A stretch of DNA of 64,000 bases from Patescibacteria group bacterium (GTDB lineage: Bacteria; Patescibacteriota; Patescibacteriia; SG8-24; DYFX01). Position numbers and translations under genes: made by a program. Location: the NCBI GenBank assembly GCA_041659045.1, contig JBAZZB010000001.1:6111-70110 (forward strand), read 5' to 3'. This document shows, in pieces, positions 5,419 through 41,259 of this stretch. Within the stretch, counting starts at the first letter, position 1, and each line of letters begins with the position of its first letter. Below the pieces are notes generated by a model. It saw only the letters and a program-made list of their open reading frames with translations. It was not told the origin of the DNA and did no database searches.

Positions 5419-6063
5419 TTACCGTACGGCTTCAAGAAGTTCTTCGTACGTCAGGGCGCCGACGTGGCGCTTGCCGTTGATGAAAAACGTCGGCAGCGCG
5501 TCGACGCCAAGTGCCAACCCCTCGTCGACCGTCCGTTCCACGAACGGACGCGTCGCATGGGTCCGCAAACACTCTGCAAACGATTGCATGTCGAGCCCGT
5601 TCTGCCCCGCCTCGAATGCTAAAGACGTTTCGTTAAACGAACCGGAGTAGCTGAAAAGCACTTCATGAAATTTCCAGAAGGCGCCTTGCTGTGCGGCGCA
5701 TAATCCGGCTTCGGCCGCTGTATCGGCGCCTTCGTGTAGGGGAGCGGGCATGTCTTTCCACACGTAGCGTACGCGTGTCGGTTGCTCCGCGAGCAGGCGC
5801 TGCACCGCCAACTCCGCCGTACGGCAATGCGGGCAGAGGTAATCGCCAAACTCGACGATCGTGATGCTGGCGTCTTTTGGTCCGACGATCTGGTCGATGA
5901 ACGTCACGTTCGGTTCCTCGAGTGTTCTCGTGACTGTTTCTGTTTTCGCGACGACGGGCGCGTTGCCTGAGATTGTTGCACGCACGACGTTCCAAAACAG
6001 CACAAGCACGGCTCCGCCAAGAACGAGAGCGACGAAAAGGATGAGAAAGAATTTATTTCTCAT
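5419..6063 (-). CDS. DsbA-family thiol:disulfide oxidoreductase (thioredoxin fold), membrane anchored
   Basis: N-terminal TM, CPHC active-site motif, DsbA-like length and C-terminal PTFFINGK. Confidence 0.85.
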   Translation of the reverse strand: MRNKFFLILFVALVLGGAVLVLFWNVVRATISGNAPVVAKTETVTRTLEEPNVTFIDQIVGPKDASITIVEFGDYLCPHCRTAELAVQRLLAEQPTRVRYVWKDMPAPLHEGADTAAEAGLCAAQQGAFWKFHEVLFSYSGSFNETSLAFEAGQNGLDMQSFAECLRTHATRPFVERTVDEGLALGVDALPTFFINGKRHVGALTYEELLEAVR

Positions 6064-33719: not shown

Positions 33720-33750
33720 ACCCTCTTGCGTGAAAAATGGCGTCTTTGCT

Positions 33751-33836
33751 AGGACCTGTCGGTGGGCCCGAGTCCTTGGTGGGCGAACCGGTCTTGCCAG
33801 TCTGGTTTTGGGGGTTCGATTCCCCTCGGGTCCACC
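33751..33836 (+). tRNA. tRNA-like element (canonical T-arm + acceptor stem + CCA; D and anticodon arms non-canonical) - possible degenerate or unusual tRNA
   Basis: GGGGGTTCGATTCCCCT T-arm directly followed by CGGGTCC-A-CCA; two possible 5' acceptor partners (GGACCTG at 33751, GGGCCCG at 33763); I could not fold a standard anticodon arm by hand. Confidence 0.3.
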
Positions 33837-33920
33837 ACCGCGTTGACAAGCATGCGGTGAACGGCTACCATTTAGCCATGGCAAGGCCGGTTTGAATCCC
33901 TCCGGGATCAGAACCAGCGG

Positions 33921-33947
33921 AAACTCCCCGAAAGGGGAGTTTTCGTT
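33921..33947 (+). terminator. intrinsic terminator closing the tRNA-like/structured RNA region
   Basis: aactccccgaaaggggagtt + ttcgttt. Confidence 0.7.
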
Positions 33948-33959
33948 TACACTCCAAAT

Positions 33960-34277
33960 ATGAAGAAGCGAAACCTGTTCAGCGAACGCGTCATCGAGCT
34001 CGCGCTCTCAATCCCGAAAGGCCGCGTCACGACCTACGGACGACTCGCCCGCGCCGCCGGCGGGGCTCTGCACCGGCCGGTGCAGAGCGGGGGAACGATG
34101 GCCTCGCAAAGCATCACGTCGATTCTTTGGAAAGCCGAACAGCGCGGCGTCAAGAATATTCCGTATCATCGGATCGTGTATGCGGATGGGAGGATTTGGA
34201 TTGATCCGAAGCGGCGAGGGAGAGGTTGGCGCTTTATAAGAAGGAGGGGATTAGAATTGACGAAAGAGACAGGATAA
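33960..34277 (+). CDS. MGMT-fold DNA-binding protein, alkyltransferase-like (ATL) with active-site Cys replaced (PYHRIV)
   Basis: helix-turn-helix TTYGRLARAAG and P-Y-H-R-I-V where O6-alkylguanine transferases have P-C-H-R-V. Confidence 0.65.
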   Translation: MKKRNLFSERVIELALSIPKGRVTTYGRLARAAGGALHRPVQSGGTMASQSITSILWKAEQRGVKNIPYHRIVYADGRIWIDPKRRGRGWRFIRRRGLELTKETG

Positions 34278-36640
34278 TAGCCTTGTAACAAGGTCGTGTT
34301 ATAGTCAAAAGGTGTCTTAAAATGCAATACGATTTTCAGAATCTTTCTCCAATAGAGTTTGAACATCTCGTTCAAGATCTTTTGCAAGAAGAATTCAAAA
34401 TCTCTTTAGAGAGCTTTGCTCCTGGTCGAGACCAAGGAATTGATTTGAGATACGCGAAAGCAAAGAAAAAAGACCTGATTGTTCAATGTAAAAGATATAA
34501 ATCGGCAACAGATTTGATGCCTGTTTTAAAAAAGGAACTTGAGAAAGTAAAAGCCTTAAAACCAGGTCGATACATATTAGCGACATCTGTCAGTCTCACC
34601 CTAAACCAAAAGCTAAAGATAAAAAAGCTCTTTAAACCGTATATCCGTGCTACGGGAGATATTTTAAGTAAGGAAAGTATAAACAATCTAATTACAAAAA
34701 ATGAAAATGTTGAACTAAGGCACTTTAAGCTTTGGCTATCAAGTACAAACATTCTACGGAAGATTATTCACAGCAAGGTCATAAACCAGGGGAAGTTAGA
34801 ATTGGATAAAATAAAAGAGGAAATTAAATTTTTTGTAGATAACTCGAGTATTGGAGATGCGCTCGATATTTTAAGAAAGACAAAAGTTATTGTTATTTCT
34901 GGTCTACCAGGTATTGGTAAAACAACACTGGCAAGAATGTTGGCCTACCATTACTTGGCAAGAAATTCATACGAAGAGTTTGTATATATATCTGATTCAA
35001 TTAGTGAGGGGTATGAAAATTTTCAAGAAGGAAAAAAGCAGGTATTTTTATTTGATGATTTTTTGGGCAGAAGTTTTCTGACAAAAGACCTACCTACAAA
35101 CGAAGACAAAAGAATAATTGAATTCATTGAAAGTATTAAACGGGCGCCAAACAAGGTTTTGATTGTCACTACTCGCGAATACATTCTTGAACAAGCAAAG
35201 AAGAAGTATGAAAATTTAAATAGCGTTGAGGTGGGTTTTTCCAAATATGTTCTGGATCTGGCCGTTTATACAAAAATGATTAAGGCAAAGATATTGTATA
35301 ATCATTTGTTTTTTTCGACGGTCCCTCAGGGGTACATCCTGGATCTATTAAAATCAAAGCACTATTTAAACATTATTAATCACAAGAACTATAGCCCTAG
35401 AATCATAGGTGCTGTCACAAAACCAGCAATTTGGGAAAAAATTGTGCCAGATAAGTACTCTGAGTTTTTTAAGAATTCTTTGGATCATCCAGACAGTATT
35501 TGGGAACACGTATTTTCAAATCAGATCACCCCGCTATCCCGCTTGATAGTCTTAACTAAATTTACTTGTGGGGAAGGATCGACATTTCTTACGGATCTCA
35601 AGGATGCGACTGAAAAGTTAGTTAAAGAGTGTGGTTTAAATTATGGAGCTGTATTTAATGCAGAAAACTTTAATAATTCGATAAAAGAGCTTGAAAGAAC
35701 ATTCATTCAAATATCAAAGGATGATTCTAACCAATTGGCAGTCGAATTTCAAAATCCATCCATCACTGATTATTTGCGTGACTATTTAAAAAACAATGAA
35801 TCTGTAGTTTCAGATTTAATTGGAGGAGCATTGTTTTTTGACCAACTCTCCCTTCCGTATTCTTTTGAGAGTGAAAAAAAATATGGAGGCATACTTTTAA
35901 GAAAACCATTGATAGAGAAAGTGGTTGAAAGAATGTCTAAAGAGTATCAATCGTTGGTATACGCGCGCCTTACGAGAGTTTATTCTATTGGTGAAGAGAG
36001 TTTTAGATGGGATAGAACTGAGGCGGGTGTGATTCAGAAGGCACAGACTGTTATAGATAAAATTGGTACTTCAATAATCGGGCAAGTTAGGCCGTTGCTA
36101 CCCACCTTAGTCAAAGATCTTATTTTAAAACGTCTTACCTATGTAGAAAGAGGACAGGTTCCAGCACTCGTTTACAAGTTAAGAAAATTTCTCACCACGG
36201 ATTTCCATGAAATCATGGAGAATTACTTAAATAGCATTTACTACTTTCCAGATGTCTTGCGTTTTTTGGAGTTTAAGCGAGTCTCAAGAAAAGAGTATAG
36301 AAAGTTTCTTAAGAAGAATCTTCAAAAGTTAATAGAAAAGATCAATTTTGCCTTAGAAAATGAGATGGATTTTATAGATAATACAGAACTCCCCAATCTT
36401 ATAAACCATGTTCAAGATGTTCAATTACGACTAGGGATCGATCTCAGCGCGTTTATTGAAAGAATAGAAAATGAAGTTCAGCTTAGAGAAAAGAAGAGTG
36501 ACCCCGAAGTTAAAGAGATTAATTTTGAAAGAGAAGAAATTGGATCCGAGATTGATATTGTAAAAATGTTTGATTCATTAGTGGATCAAAACAAAGATTG
36601 AGGTACATTTCCCCGTTCGCCCTTCCTCCTGTAAGATCGG
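34230..36640. mobile_element. AT-rich horizontally acquired island (single gene, no integrase)
   Basis: abrupt drop to roughly one-third GC by eye between high-GC ATL gene and dnaE; AT-rich codon usage throughout the ORF. Confidence 0.55.
34322..36601 (+). CDS. Mrr-type restriction endonuclease domain fused to NB-ARC/STAND-like P-loop NTPase with helical C-terminal region (Avs-like candidate defence protein)
   Basis: N-term FEHLVQDLL...GRDQGIDL...LIVQCKRY (Mrr_cat PD-(D/E)xK pattern); Walker A GLPGIGKTT; Walker B KQVFLFDDFLG; sensor-1-like KVLIVTTREY (compare NB-ARC GxGGxGKTT / LLVLDD / TTR). Confidence 0.8.
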   Translation: MQYDFQNLSPIEFEHLVQDLLQEEFKISLESFAPGRDQGIDLRYAKAKKKDLIVQCKRYKSATDLMPVLKKELEKVKALKPGRYILATSVSLTLNQKLKIKKLFKPYIRATGDILSKESINNLITKNENVELRHFKLWLSSTNILRKIIHSKVINQGKLELDKIKEEIKFFVDNSSIGDALDILRKTKVIVISGLPGIGKTTLARMLAYHYLARNSYEEFVYISDSISEGYENFQEGKKQVFLFDDFLGRSFLTKDLPTNEDKRIIEFIESIKRAPNKVLIVTTREYILEQAKKKYENLNSVEVGFSKYVLDLAVYTKMIKAKILYNHLFFSTVPQGYILDLLKSKHYLNIINHKNYSPRIIGAVTKPAIWEKIVPDKYSEFFKNSLDHPDSIWEHVFSNQITPLSRLIVLTKFTCGEGSTFLTDLKDATEKLVKECGLNYGAVFNAENFNNSIKELERTFIQISKDDSNQLAVEFQNPSITDYLRDYLKNNESVVSDLIGGALFFDQLSLPYSFESEKKYGGILLRKPLIEKVVERMSKEYQSLVYARLTRVYSIGEESFRWDRTEAGVIQKAQTVIDKIGTSIIGQVRPLLPTLVKDLILKRLTYVERGQVPALVYKLRKFLTTDFHEIMENYLNSIYYFPDVLRFLEFKRVSRKEYRKFLKKNLQKLIEKINFALENEMDFIDNTELPNLINHVQDVQLRLGIDLSAFIERIENEVQLREKKSDPEVKEINFEREEIGSEIDIVKMFDSLVDQNKD

Positions 36641-36653
36641 GTACACTTAGAGT

Positions 36654-39600
36654 ATGCCCGCCAAATTCACCCACCTCCATTGTCATAGCCATTATTCCCT
36701 TCTAGAGGCCCTGCCTCAGGTGGATAAGCTGGTTAAGTTTGCCAAGTCGCAGGGAGCGACGGCCGTCGCCCTGACGGACAACGGCAACATGTTCGGGGTG
36801 ATCGAATTCGTGCAGGAGTGCCAGAAGGCGGAGATCAAGCCGATCATCGGGTACGACGCCTTCGTGGCGGTCGACACCATCGACTTGAAGCGCCACCGCA
36901 TCGACGACAAGAATGGACGCCTCGTGCTTCTGGCCGAGACGATGGAGGGCTATAAGAATTTGATGAAGCTCGCGTCGGTCGCGTACCTCGACGGCTTCTA
37001 CTACCGCCCGCGTATCGATCGCAATCTCCTTCGCCAGCATGGGAAGGGGATCATCGCGCTTGCGGGTCCGCGCAGCGACGTCGGCAAGGCGCTCGTCGAT
37101 GGCGATATGGAAAAAGCGCGAGAGAGAGCGGTAGAGTATCGCGATATTCTCGGCGCGGAGAATTTTTTCTTTGAACTCGTCTACCAGCCGGACAGTCCGA
37201 CGCAGAAAGAAACGAACGACGCCTTCATCGCGCTCGGCAAAGAACTGAGTATCGGCGTCGTCGCCTCACGGAACGTCTATTATTTGAAACCGGAACAAGC
37301 CGAAGCGCGGTCGCTTTTGTTGTGCATCAAAGATAACCGCACACTTGAAGATCGCGAGCGTTCCGTTGCGGCCGACAACGATCTTTCGATGTCATCGCCG
37401 GAGGAAATCGAAGAAGCGTTTAAAGACGTTCCCGAGGCGATCGAGAACAACGCGCGCATCGTGGAGCGTTGCAATGTGAAGCTCGAGCTCGGCAAATGGA
37501 ACTTCCCCGTCTTTGAGATTCCGGACGGCCTCACGGCTATCGAGTATTTGAGAAAAATTTCCTTCGAGCGCTTGCCGCTGCTTTTGAAGCGTCCGCTCGA
37601 ACAGCGCGAGATCGATCGACTGAACTACGAAATCGACATTGTCGAGAAGAAAGGTTACGCCACCTACTTCCTCGTCGTCGCCGACTACGGTTCATGGGCG
37701 CGGGCTCAAGGAATCGTGCTGACCACTCGTGGTTCGGCCGCCGGTTCGCTCATGGCCTATGCCATCGGCATCGTCACCGTAAACCCGCTCGACTACAACC
37801 TGCCGTTCGAGCGCTTCTTGAACCCGCAACGTCCGTCCGCGCCGGATATTGATATGGACTTCGCCGACCACCGTCGCGGTGAGGTCTTGGAATACGTGAA
37901 AGGAAAGTACGGCGCCGATCACGTGGCGCAGATCTGTACCTTCGGAACAATGGCCGCCCGCGCTTCGATGCGCGACGTCGGCCGCGCTTTGGGCTACCCG
38001 GTGGCGTTTTGCGATCAAATCGCCAAGACGATTCCGTTCGGCCAACAAGGCTTCGCCATGACGATCGACCGCGCGCTGGCCGAAACGCCCGACTTCAAGC
38101 GCCGCTATGACAACGAACCAGAAGTAAAACGCCTCGTCGATTTGGCCAAGCAGCTCGAAGGCAACGCCAGACATTGTTCAGTGCACGCCGCCGGCGTTGT
38201 TATTTCCGACAAGCCGCTCGTGGAATACACGCCTCTGCAGAGAGAAGCAGGAGGCGATGCCATCATTACGCAATACGAAATGCACGCGGTCGAAGATGCC
38301 GGCGTGCTCAAGATGGACTTCCTGGGTATTCGCAACCTTTCGATTTTGGAATACGCGATCGCGCTCGCCAAGCGCACCAAAGGCGTCGAGGTCGATTTGG
38401 TGCACATGGATTTGAAGGACAAGAAGACCTTCGAAATGCTGGCCGCCGGAAAAACGATGGGTCTGTTTCAGTTGAACGGCGACGGCATGACGAAGTACCT
38501 GATGCAGCTCAAGCCCACGATGATCGAAGACATCATGGCTATGGTCGCGCTGTATCGCCCGGGCCCGATCGATATTATTCCAGAGTTCATCAAGCGCAAG
38601 CAGAACCCGAGGCTCATCACGTACCTCGATCCGCGGATGAAGGAATATTTGGGCATGTCATACGGCATGCTCGTCTATCAGGACGACGTGCTCATGACCG
38701 CCATCAACCTCGCGGGCTACGACTGGCTCGAGGCCGACAAGTTCCGCAAGGCCATGGGCAAGAAGATTCCCGAGGAAATGGCCAAGCAGGAAATCAAGTT
38801 CAAGGATGGTTGTGTCGAGCACGGCATGACCAAGGCCAAAACGGAGGAATTGTGGGAACTCATCAAACCGTTCGCGGCCTACGGTTTCAACAAGGCGCAC
38901 GCCGCCTCGTACGGCATCGTCGCGTACCAGACGGCCTACATGAAGGCCAACTTTCCGGCCGAATACATGACGGCACTCATGACGGCGGAATCCGGCGATC
39001 TCGACACGATCGCGCTGGCGGTTAAAGAATGCGACGCGCTTGGCATCAATGTCTTGCCTCCGGACGTGAACAGTTCCGAAGCCGACTTCACGTACATCGA
39101 CGACCGCACGATTCGTTTCGGTCTCGGCGTCATCAAGGGTCTCGGCATCGATACGGTCAACGCCATTATCGACGAGCGCAAAGACAAGGGATTGTTCAAA
39201 GACCTCGCCGACTTCTCAGGACGCATTCCCGGCAAGGCTTTTAATAAAAAATCTCTTGAAGCTCTGGCAAAGTCGGGCGCGCTCGACGCACTTGGCGAAC
39301 GCAACCAGATCGTCGAGAACTCCGATGTGCTCACGACGTACAACAAGAATCTCCTCAAGGAGCGTGACAACGGCCAGTCGAACCTCTTCGCGTTCGTTGT
39401 GCCGACCGGAACCGAACTCATTCCGACACTCGGTCTTCGGAGCGTGCCGCCCGCTTCGCAGCGTAAGAGATTGGATTGGGAAAAAGAATTGCTCGGCCTG
39501 TACGTCAGCGCGCATCCGTTCGAGGAAACCTCCAAAGAATTCGGTGATCTGCTCATGCCGATTTCCAAAGCGTTCACGCTGCCAGAAAAATCTCCCGTGC

Positions 39601-40172
39601 GCGTTGGTGGAACCGTCACGGCCGTGAAGCAAATCGTCACCAAAAAATCCGGCGAGCCCATGCTCTTCGCGACGATCACTGACCCGAGCGGTACGGTCGA
39701 ATGTTTGGTATTCCCAAGCGTCTTTAAAGAGAATGGCGCCGTCTGGATTGAAGGCGCAAACTTGGCCGTGACCGGACGCGTCTCGCGCAAAGACGACGAG
39801 TTCAAAATTCTCGCCGATCGCGGCTGGACGCTCAACAACGAAACGATCCCGGTCTACAAAGCGCATTTCAACGGAGAGACGGTGAGTTCCGACATGATGC
39901 TTTCGATGCAGCGTCCGCGCCCCAAAGCGGGGAGTGGGGAAGTGCGTATCGTGCTGCCGTCCAAAATGCCACCGTCCGCCGTCACCGCACTCAAAGCTAC
40001 GCTCGCCAAGTATCCGGGAAAAACAATGGTCGCACTCGACGTCCGTGCTGAGGGTGGATATCAGCGCGTCGAAACTTCATTCATGGTCGATCCGTCACCC
40101 GACGCCGTGGCTGCCATCGAAAAGCAGGTTGGCATGGGGAATGTGAAAGTGACTCTGCCCACGGGTGTATAA
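36654..40172 (+). CDS. dnaE: DNA polymerase III alpha subunit
   Basis: PHP domain start (HLHCHSHYSLLEA), Pol IIIalpha palm/fingers, OB domain; 1172 aa. Confidence 0.95.
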   Translation: MPAKFTHLHCHSHYSLLEALPQVDKLVKFAKSQGATAVALTDNGNMFGVIEFVQECQKAEIKPIIGYDAFVAVDTIDLKRHRIDDKNGRLVLLAETMEGYKNLMKLASVAYLDGFYYRPRIDRNLLRQHGKGIIALAGPRSDVGKALVDGDMEKARERAVEYRDILGAENFFFELVYQPDSPTQKETNDAFIALGKELSIGVVASRNVYYLKPEQAEARSLLLCIKDNRTLEDRERSVAADNDLSMSSPEEIEEAFKDVPEAIENNARIVERCNVKLELGKWNFPVFEIPDGLTAIEYLRKISFERLPLLLKRPLEQREIDRLNYEIDIVEKKGYATYFLVVADYGSWARAQGIVLTTRGSAAGSLMAYAIGIVTVNPLDYNLPFERFLNPQRPSAPDIDMDFADHRRGEVLEYVKGKYGADHVAQICTFGTMAARASMRDVGRALGYPVAFCDQIAKTIPFGQQGFAMTIDRALAETPDFKRRYDNEPEVKRLVDLAKQLEGNARHCSVHAAGVVISDKPLVEYTPLQREAGGDAIITQYEMHAVEDAGVLKMDFLGIRNLSILEYAIALAKRTKGVEVDLVHMDLKDKKTFEMLAAGKTMGLFQLNGDGMTKYLMQLKPTMIEDIMAMVALYRPGPIDIIPEFIKRKQNPRLITYLDPRMKEYLGMSYGMLVYQDDVLMTAINLAGYDWLEADKFRKAMGKKIPEEMAKQEIKFKDGCVEHGMTKAKTEELWELIKPFAAYGFNKAHAASYGIVAYQTAYMKANFPAEYMTALMTAESGDLDTIALAVKECDALGINVLPPDVNSSEADFTYIDDRTIRFGLGVIKGLGIDTVNAIIDERKDKGLFKDLADFSGRIPGKAFNKKSLEALAKSGALDALGERNQIVENSDVLTTYNKNLLKERDNGQSNLFAFVVPTGTELIPTLGLRSVPPASQRKRLDWEKELLGLYVSAHPFEETSKEFGDLLMPISKAFTLPEKSPVRVGGTVTAVKQIVTKKSGEPMLFATITDPSGTVECLVFPSVFKENGAVWIEGANLAVTGRVSRKDDEFKILADRGWTLNNETIPVYKAHFNGETVSSDMMLSMQRPRPKAGSGEVRIVLPSKMPPSAVTALKATLAKYPGKTMVALDVRAEGGYQRVETSFMVDPSPDAVAAIEKQVGMGNVKVTLPTGV

Positions 40173-40182
40173 TGGAACGACT

Positions 40183-41259
40183 ATGACTGTCGACCCCAGA
40201 GAGGAAGCGGTGCGGCGTGCCTATGAAGCGGCCCGCTTTGACGAACGCACCCCCGACGAGCGAGGTTTCGCGGAAACGTTCGAAAAAGAAATCAAGCCGA
40301 AACTTATCGCGGGTGTCGGGTTTAACAGAAGCGTCAAAGAGGCGCGCTTGCGTCGACGTAAAATCGCCTTCGCGCTCGCAGTGTCTTACGTCGTGGTTTC
40401 TCTTTTTGTTCTTGCGATACTTGATCTTCCAGACAGTGGTGTTGGTCTCCAATTGTTTCTTTTCGGTAGCTTCTTCGTCGGTTCCGCTTTGTGGAACTAT
40501 GCGTTCATGAAACGCGCTGGCGAAGAAGATCCCAACAACGCAGCGGTGATCGATGCGGTTCTCGCTCGCTTCGGTTGCCGGATGGGCTCAGGGTTTGCAA
40601 AGTATGTTGCGCTGCCGTTTGCCGCGCCGATCACGCCGTCGTACAGCGACTTCTCATTCGTCAACGAGCATCTGACGGGCACGTTTGATGAACGCATTCC
40701 ATTCGTCGCCTTGCGGTTAACGATGAAAGCAAAGTCGGGAAAGAGCAAAATAACCACGTTCAAGGGGTGGTATCTCAATATTGAACTGCCCTTCTCGTTT
40801 TCGGGCACCACGATTATTCACGAACGACTCTCCGTTTATCACCGCATTCCGGGTGGTCGGAACCTCGGCGTCGTTTCTTTAGAAAGCCTCGAGTACGAAA
40901 AACGTTTCACGGTAAAATCAAGTAATCAAACCGAGGCGCGCGTGATTCTGACTCCGGATGTCATGCATCACCTGGCACTCGAGGCCGATCGTTTTGCATC
41001 TGAAGGAAAGGGCTGGAACCCCTCCGGCAACTTGATGCTTGGTTTCTCGGAGAATCGCGCTCACATATGGATGCCCTCCCGCGAGACCGCACTTTCTGTC
41101 TGGAATCCGCTCGACCCCACCGCGATGATCGAAGGTCTGCATGGTGCGTTTGAAGAACTTGCGGAAATGCGCGCCTTTCTTCGTGATATCGACGTCATTG
41201 CCGAATCCGAAGGTTTCCGCGCCTTGGCCGCCAAAAACGGGAGAAGCGAAGCGTCTTGA
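40183..41259 (+). CDS. hypothetical membrane protein (2 TM + C-terminal domain)
   Basis: ATG 10 nt after dnaE stop; two adjacent TM helices then about 230-aa domain. Confidence 0.5.
   Translation: MTVDPREEAVRRAYEAARFDERTPDERGFAETFEKEIKPKLIAGVGFNRSVKEARLRRRKIAFALAVSYVVVSLFVLAILDLPDSGVGLQLFLFGSFFVGSALWNYAFMKRAGEEDPNNAAVIDAVLARFGCRMGSGFAKYVALPFAAPITPSYSDFSFVNEHLTGTFDERIPFVALRLTMKAKSGKSKITTFKGWYLNIELPFSFSGTTIIHERLSVYHRIPGGRNLGVVSLESLEYEKRFTVKSSNQTEARVILTPDVMHHLALEADRFASEGKGWNPSGNLMLGFSENRAHIWMPSRETALSVWNPLDPTAMIEGLHGAFEELAEMRAFLRDIDVIAESEGFRALAAKNGRSEAS

Follow-up and report, generated by a model that had tools for sequence, protein, structure and literature searches.

A predicted Mrr-nSTAND3 sensor-effector gene of the PDC-S73 family at a variable site upstream of dnaE in a Patescibacteria genome

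Among the described systems closest to the gene presented here, Avs4, Avs2, and Avs8 of the antiviral STAND (Avs) proteins carry an N-terminal Mrr-family nuclease, a helical linker, and a STAND NTPase within chains of ~1,300-1,600 residues or more, and possess long TPR-like sensors for portal, terminase, and major capsid protein. Avs2 and Avs8 need the nuclease for defense, their activation leads to DNA degradation, and Avs2 defense also needs the NTPase lysine. In Avs5 (AVAST type 5) a SIR2 NADase serves as the effector; PaAvs5 combines SIR2, nSTAND3 (PF20720), and helical repeats, and the trigger of the filament-forming EfAvs5 is T7 gp1.7. Avs5, Avs6, and Avs9 have been grouped as SAMD9-like, with SIR2, PNP, and AlbA_2 effectors. 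Lee et al. (2026) distinguished 589 STAND clades, 198 of them defense-associated, included nSTAND clades, and clustered sensors only if these had at least 400 residues. PDC-S73 is a single-gene phage defense candidate (Payne et al., 2024 preprint, bioRxiv 10.1101/2024.01.29.577857) and belongs to the 145 PDC systems, which are candidates predicted as embedded in or adjoining known systems. Here we analyzed a 64-kb stretch (hereafter the window) of a metagenome-assembled Patescibacteria genome (contig JBAZZB010000001.1), in which an AT-rich island directly upstream of dnaE encodes a 759-residue protein with an Mrr-type nuclease domain, an nSTAND3 NTPase, and a divergent C-terminal domain. The most probable reading is that the gene encodes an NLR-like (Avs-type) anti-phage protein of the PDC-S73/Mrr-nSTAND3 family, in which sensor and effector form one polypeptide, and that it was acquired horizontally at a cassette-exchange hotspot.

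The open reading frame (ORF) noticed in a preliminary description of this DNA was recovered at 34322..36601 on the forward strand, which is also that of the domains, the ATL and dnaE genes, and the non-coding elements upstream of them described below, and encodes 759 residues from an ATG start. Its N-terminus, MQYDFQNLSPIEFE, agrees with the consensus start of the family in the homologue alignment, and under the local base composition a stop-free run of 759 codons has a probability of ~10^-27.5. All four motifs quoted in the preliminary description (GRDQGIDL...IVQCKRY, GLPGIGKTT, VFLFDDFLG, and VIVTTREY) were found in the translation. Its reading of the N-terminus as an Mrr-type PD-(D/E)xK nuclease (aa 1-93; 34322..34600), with D37/D41...Q55-x-K57 at 34430-34492, was borne out by Pfam Mrr_cat (PF04471), which matched aa 6-68 with 39 bits against a cutoff of 21 (E = 1e-9), over model positions 2-66 of 115 only. 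A helical linker between nuclease and NTPase (aa 94-170; 34601..34831; helices 94-168 in the structure model) leads to the nSTAND3 P-loop NTPase domain (aa 171-331; 34832..35314), for which Pfam PF20720 was matched in full (model positions 1-155 of 155) with 172.6 bits against a cutoff of 27.2 (E = 6.2e-51). The domain contains the Walker A motif GLPGIGKTT (34901-34927), the Walker B motif VFLFDD (35042-35059), and a TTR with sensor-1 Arg285 (35168-35176). Of the NB-ARC/STAND assignment made from the letters alone, the STAND part thus stood, whereas NB-ARC (17.1 bits vs. 23.5) and NACHT (17.2 vs. 26.7) matched at the P-loop only (~aa 185-226) and stayed below the Pfam gathering cutoffs, as did the P-loop match to AAA_16.

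The NTPase is followed by helical and winged-helix-like domains (aa 332-478; 35315..35755) that complete a NOD-like module, and then by a hypervariable helical domain that is the candidate sensor (aa 479-759; 35756..36598). The protein therefore has the STAND (NLR-like) layout of Walker A, hhhhDD Walker B, sensor-1 arginine, helical/winged-helix domains, and C-terminal sensor region. In the structure model the nuclease domain shows an alpha-beta-beta-beta-alpha-beta core, and residues 332-478 fold as helices and then a beta-hairpin, a prediction from which the winged-helix assignment is taken. No SIR2 domain was matched by Pfam in this protein, and NCBIfam and PHROGs searches added nothing specific.

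Membership in PDC-S73 emerged from the PADLOC search that the preliminary description had proposed and was evident from an end-to-end match to the corresponding model (PDLC05079; E = 8.4e-151, 502 bits, aa 1-756 vs. model positions 1-721 of 752). With the other members the protein shares this match, a length of ~740-780 residues, the Mrr_cat and nSTAND3 domains, and the invariant motifs (more than 100 listed homologues), but it is only 37-50% identical to any other among the matches listed, and its host belongs to the Patescibacteria (Candidate Phyla Radiation, CPR) rather than to the predominant Bacteroidota. The family as a whole comprises more than 1,900 detectable homologues, the full-length ones being 37-50% identical to the query; the remaining hosts include some Limnohabitans, Doudnabacteria, and Aminicenantes, and many of the homologues are now named 'nSTAND3 domain-containing NTPase' by NCBI. 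The identical public protein (P0001), located on a 646-kb contig, bears the name 'MAG: restriction endonuclease [Patescibacteria group bacterium]'.

Conservation is distributed unevenly along the chain. In an alignment of 50 homologues the nuclease residues E14, E30, D37, D41, Q55, and K57 are invariant, as are the NTPase residues G194, P196, G197, G199, K200, T202, D245, D246, T284, R285, and E286, and all of them are intact in this protein. Median identity to the homologues is 57% in the Mrr nuclease, 49% in the linker, 57% in the NTPase, and 40% in the helical/winged-helix region, and falls to 20% in the C-terminal part (aa 479-759; range 17-29% vs. other members). A gradient of this kind is what would be expected, as judged from the alignment, if the C-terminal domain were a diversifying sensor.

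Structural comparison placed the protein among Avs proteins and NLRs, as the preliminary description had proposed from its architecture. Among solved structures, Avs5, Avs4, and NLRs come closest; the best Foldseek match was Avs4 (E = 1.3e-8), human SAMD9 (9zjs) was among the top matches (E = 3.5e-7), and more than 300 residues align structurally to Avs5 and to the plant NLR WRR4A. The statement that the protein is much shorter than described Avs proteins did not survive, as the solved Avs5 chains have 833 and 768 residues. Although the C-terminal domain is modeled with confidence (pLDDT 86.8, pTM 0.79), the suggested comparison of this domain with Avs sensor domains gave no significant fold match in the PDB (best E = 0.3; AVAST5 filament E = 1.3), so the trigger cannot be inferred from the fold.

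Avs5 (EfAvs5, PDB 9jap; AVAST5 filament, 9nc9) has in common with the protein an nSTAND3-type NTPase and the overall NOD fold, but its effector is SIR2 instead of Mrr, no match at the sequence level was obtained in the PDB or PADLOC searches, and the Avs5/SAMD9-type C-terminal sensor is not matched by the C-terminal domain of this protein (E = 1.3). Avs4, Avs2, and Avs8 share the order of nuclease, linker, and NTPase; however, their NTPases belong to a clade different from nSTAND3, and their sensors have at least ~700 residues, compared with the ~280 residues without a fold match that follow the NOD module here. Among the PADLOC matches at E ≤ 1 there was no Avs- or PD-lambda-named model. The likeness to SAMD9/SAMD9L, Avs6, and Avs9, which are much longer, carry AlbA_2, PNP, or SIR2 effectors, and contain OB-fold and TPR regions, is structural only. 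A further relationship concerns the effector end: residues 1-155 (34322-34786) match the N-terminus of the PADLOC model Aga_TIR-PNTD1-PNTD2 (E = 1.7e-38), and an N-terminal match to Aga_REase-TIR-PNTD1-PNTD2 (E = 4e-24) falls within residues 1-179. The Mrr domain and the linker are thus shared with the Mrr-TIR-APAZ partners of short Argonautes, whereas everything past residue ~180 differs; the protein contains neither TIR nor APAZ, and no Argonaute gene lies nearby in the window. Because N-termini of these Argonaute-associated models match, the nuclease and helical linker form a shared, portable defense effector module.

By analogy with Avs2, Avs4, Avs5, and Avs8, ligand sensing, oligomerization, DNA cleavage, and abortive infection can be proposed for this protein. 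At rest, the C-terminal helical domain would keep the nSTAND3 NTPase ADP-bound and auto-inhibited. Binding of a phage-derived ligand to this fast-evolving domain would free the switch, and ATP binding would then lead to oligomerization, either into a tetramer as in Avs3/Avs4 or into a filament as in Avs5. In such an oligomer the N-terminal Mrr PD-QxK nuclease domains would be juxtaposed, and the activated nuclease might cleave double-stranded DNA indiscriminately, so that the infected cell would halt phage production.

The same domains could instead belong to an NTP-dependent restriction enzyme with type IV/McrBC-like logic, involving neither protein-ligand sensing nor abortive infection. In that case the C-terminal domain would read a DNA modification or structure, with the NTPase serving as motor or clamp and Mrr cutting foreign DNA directly. 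The source annotation as a restriction endonuclease points in this direction, as do the role of Mrr_cat as the catalytic domain of type IV enzymes and the winged-helix-like element of the structure model; moreover, a genuine Mrr type IV enzyme occupies the same genomic site in a relative (L085, see below). That enzyme, however, has both Mrr_N and Mrr_cat, whereas the 759-residue protein matched neither the Mrr_N DNA-binding domain nor the PADLOC mREase_IV model. A weak NCBIfam match to McrB (aa 170-299) reached 20.7 bits against a cutoff of 637. The complete nSTAND3 domain, in which the TTR of sensor 1 is followed by helical and winged-helix domains, represents a switch architecture, and more than 300 residues of the protein align to Avs5. 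Moreover, C-terminal divergence down to 20% identity is typical of arms-race sensors and not of readers of DNA modification. We therefore regard a restriction enzyme as unlikely and favor the Avs-type sensor-effector.

The base composition of the gene is foreign to its surroundings. Between 34200 and 36600 the GC content is 0.31-0.38, compared with 0.54-0.62 in the flanks and 57% in the window as a whole, which confirms that an AT-rich island is set between GC-rich sequences and that the composition of this region is not uniform. The lowest-GC 2.3-kb stretch of the 64 kb starts at 34301 (z = -15.1 relative to the remainder), and outside the AT-rich segment every 500-nt interval has a GC content of at least 0.47. 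The contrast extends to codon usage, with an overall GC of 0.343 and a GC at third codon positions of 0.321 in the gene vs. third-position values of 0.59-0.73 in the six surrounding genes. The inserted segment (34281..36606; GC 0.34 vs. 0.57) is made up of a 41-nt upstream spacer, the ORF, and 5 nt past the stop codon. Its neighbors are those named before: on the left a gene for an alkyltransferase-like (ATL) protein, recognized as such because PYHRIV replaces the active-site Cys of an MGMT-type DNA_binding_1 domain, and on the right dnaE (DNA polymerase III alpha; 36654..40172), the core gene that anchors the site.

We compared the site with eight relatives whose DnaE is 84-88% identical; one of them (L001) was the closest relative in a genome collection, and the empty sites came from metagenome contigs. 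The Mrr-nSTAND3 gene was absent from all eight, the contig of L001 stopping 427 nt upstream of dnaE. In L084 and L105 the site is empty: sequence corresponding to window positions 33722-33943 is joined to 36602 with ~33 nt in between, and the ATL gene is missing together with the STAND gene. The comparison proposed earlier thus did reveal an empty site, although it lacks the ATL gene as well. Other relatives carry different cargo. L081 has the ATL gene followed by 1.8 kb encoding two proteins of no known family, L106 has the ATL gene and 0.8 kb, L082 has ~1.1 kb of other sequence, and L001 has unrelated sequence of 46% GC up to its contig end. The slot of L085 (8154-9974) contains genes for a 252-aa NERD-domain protein and for a type IV Mrr restriction enzyme that is complete (Mrr_N and Mrr_cat; PADLOC mREase_IV, E = 2e-87), which supports the view that the slot collects defense genes. 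Since relatives hold either an empty site or different cargo at this position, which is delimited by a tRNA-like RNA gene and the dnaE promoter, it is a cassette-exchange hotspot. Horizontal acquisition of the Mrr-nSTAND3 gene is supported by its absence from the eight close relatives, two of them with an empty site.

The edges of the island are sharply defined. On the left, homology to the ATL genes of the relatives stops at ~34280-34285, within the 3' end of the ATL gene. On the right, homology to the dnaE leader of the relatives resumes at ~36602-36608. The conserved leader (36607..36653), which bounds the variable spot on the right, contains 'cctcctgtaagatcg' and a promoter-like TTTCCC/TTGCCC-N18-TAAGAT, and it aligns from this point in six of the seven relatives aligned, whatever the cargo; in L085 the alignment begins only at about the start of dnaE. 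The inverted-repeat-like pair reported near the two GC transitions was not among the repeats found: its right arm lies in the conserved dnaE leader/promoter and its left arm in ATL coding sequence. The pair is spurious, because the arms are host sequence that is also seen in relatives lacking the island (right arm) or sharing the ATL gene (left arm). A repeat search found no repeats flanking the island, and none of the ORFs in the window encodes a recombinase or integrase, in line with the earlier remark that no integrase accompanies the gene. An integrase-mobilized island inserted at the 3' end of a tRNA or tmRNA gene was considered and rejected, there being no recombinase and no flanking repeats; ARAGORN found no tRNA or tmRNA gene in the window or in seven relatives, and Rfam at gathering thresholds found nothing in the 64 kb.

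The abrupt, gene-sized jump in composition would also be produced if an AT-rich gene of another organism, for example one of the Bacteroidota, had been misjoined into a Patescibacteria contig during assembly or binning. The source is a metagenome-assembled genome and the closest homologue is only 50% identical, as such an artifact might have it. However, a Logan assembly of SRR18595301, which was built separately, has the same island arrangement and identical junctions. The junctions contain no repeat that could cause a chimera, both coincide exactly with the boundaries of a spot that varies independently in the eight relatives, and the contig extends hundreds of kilobases to either side. A misjoin is accordingly very improbable, and we treat the island as a genuine insertion.

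Additional observations concern the cargo of two relatives. The proteins encoded at L081 777-2172 and, on the reverse strand, at L082 9309-9827 have 292, 181, and 172 residues, and none of them had a Pfam or PADLOC match. The L081 proteins contain the R-x4-H strings LRNKIAHG and LRCAMLHQG, which by eye allow an unconfirmed HEPN-like reading.

The neighborhoods of homologues are rich in defense genes. The nearest homologue (50% identity; L120 313-4483) adjoins an OLD-like gene, and in Doudnabacteria (L116 6129-10277) only 4 nt separate the homologue from an OLD/GajA-like ATPase-TOPRIM gene upstream of it on the same strand. A homologue from Sphingobacterium is located amid HNH, NUDIX, ThsA-like SIR2, HD, and deaminase genes. 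Another occurs with TerB_N and HEPN_AbiU2 in an element that bears a serine recombinase and a primase, and a further homologue has a SymE/HTH pair and a transposase as neighbors. Of four loci of this kind, three have a homologue gene that is richer in AT than its flanks.

With regard to the two genes that recur side by side, an OLD-family ATPase-TOPRIM gene (PADLOC Old/AriA/GajA matches) was found directly adjoining in two of the six homologues examined, and OLD plus STAND may be a gene pair that recurs, in which case the system would not be strictly a single-gene one. In L116 (4118-13620) the pair lies between tRNA genes (Leu, Val, Phe, Gly ... Cys, Leu). This region also contains a partial second copy of the tRNA-Gly 3' end (5715-5746), duplicated 5' ends of tRNA-Phe and tRNA-Cys, and GIY-YIG fragments; the tRNA duplicates and the GIY-YIG fragments are footprints of repeated integration or recombination.

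Several observations weigh against an anti-phage sensor-effector. The defense role of PDC-S73 is that of a candidate, being a prediction, as is explicitly the case for all 145 PDC systems, and a literature search for 'PDC-S73' found no mention. Eight PADLOC families matched at E ≤ 1, none of them Avs/AVAST-named, and a search of PDB sequences with the family profile gave P-loop matches only and no solved Avs. The small C-terminal domain (~280 aa) has no match among known sensors. Neither a promoter nor a terminator of the gene's own was found above chance expectation, and the frameshift in the adjacent ATL gene (see below) hints at some local decay or sequence error.

Two of these points, the predicted function of the family and the lack of a detected promoter, would also suit a conflict or selfish gene that is not directed against phage, such as a toxin-like addiction module carried by mobile DNA, an anti-plasmid or anti-transposon factor, or a regulator; it would then be a passenger that does not benefit this host. 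The homologue beside the SymE/HTH toxin-antitoxin pair and transposase and the one in the recombinase/primase element are consistent with such a gene. Its probability is nevertheless low in our estimate, as the ORF is intact and retains all of its conserved catalytic residues, the island contains no gene for a partner antitoxin, the homologue neighbors are predominantly recognized anti-phage genes, and validated Avs proteins have the same architecture. An Avs-type anti-phage protein agrees better with these features.

Both the family and its plan of nuclease, STAND NTPase, and variable sensor have been catalogued before, and the gene is no new kind of system. It represents a clean and well-delimited arrival of a defense-type gene in a reduced CPR/Patescibacteria genome, a group in which immune repertoires are poorly known, and it marks a variable single-cassette slot directly upstream of the essential dnaE gene. 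PDC-S73 gains a divergent member together with a confident model of a small sensor domain, and the family could serve as an attractive minimal Avs-like system for trigger finding. A more far-reaching proposal has two parts, which we put forward jointly and tentatively, as possible but doubtful: that PDC-S73 is a distinct, unnamed Avs-type family of the nSTAND3/SAMD9-like clade, and that Patescibacteria swap single-gene cassettes without a recombinase. According to the first part, PDC-S73 may join an Mrr DNase to a hypervariable sensor that is not of TPR type, is unusually compact (~280 aa), and would recognize an undescribed class of triggers. According to the second, ultra-small Patescibacteria genomes may swap single-gene immune cassettes, without recombinase or repeats, at a fixed slot that reaches from a tRNA-like RNA gene to the dnaE promoter.

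Three further features lie to the left of the island. The ATL-like gene (MGMT DNA_binding_1; 33960..34289) appears damaged when set against the ATL genes of L081 and L085, which are intact. Near 34217 a deletion of 1 nt causes a frameshift relative to L081, L085, and L106, the alternative frame running to ...ERLALYKKEGIRIDERDRIIAL before its stop codon, and at the island junction other sequence has taken the place of the last ~10 codons; the damage could reflect a pseudogene or a sequence error. A perfect 24-nt palindrome within the gene (34065-34088; GCTCTGCACCGG/CCGGTGCAGAGC) coincides with an extra segment, 'ALHRPVQSG', that is missing in the ATL proteins of L081 and L085, and could be a small insertion or an assembly artifact.

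A tRNA-like element of 74 nt (33764..33837) lies 440 nt upstream of the island, with ~120 nt between it and the left boundary of the variable spot, and with the ATL gene and a small transcription unit between it and the island. Its acceptor stem of 7 bp includes G3:U70, its T-arm is perfect and canonical (GGGGGTTCGATTCCCC), CCA is encoded, and the minimum-energy fold is a cloverleaf (-37 kcal/mol, z = -2.5). A CTTGCCA loop is possible (UGC = Ala), although the anticodon arm of this cloverleaf closes on a loop of 4 nt. ARAGORN did not call the element, and the match to Rfam tmRNA scored 27.3 bits, below the gathering score of 47, and involved the ends of the tRNA-like domain only. The element is kept in L082, L084, and L105, and in L085 only its 3' part is present; acceptor pair 7 has changed from G-C to T-A, apparently in a compensatory manner. 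It could be an old integration target.

The small transcription unit (33843..33947) comprises a promoter-like site, TTGACA-N17-TACCAT, a ~70-nt transcript, and a strong hairpin terminator (33921-33947). It had no match in Rfam. The unit is conserved, its 3' part folds at z = -5.2, and the variable cargo starts directly after it; we consider it a candidate small RNA.

A second variable spot was observed just after dnaE, where a gene for a 364-aa DUF3137 protein (ORF 40165..41259; window 40145-41251) is located. This gene is absent from L001, in which homology jumps from 40144 to 41252; it is seemingly absent from L085 as well, and only partial matches to it were found in L082 and L084.

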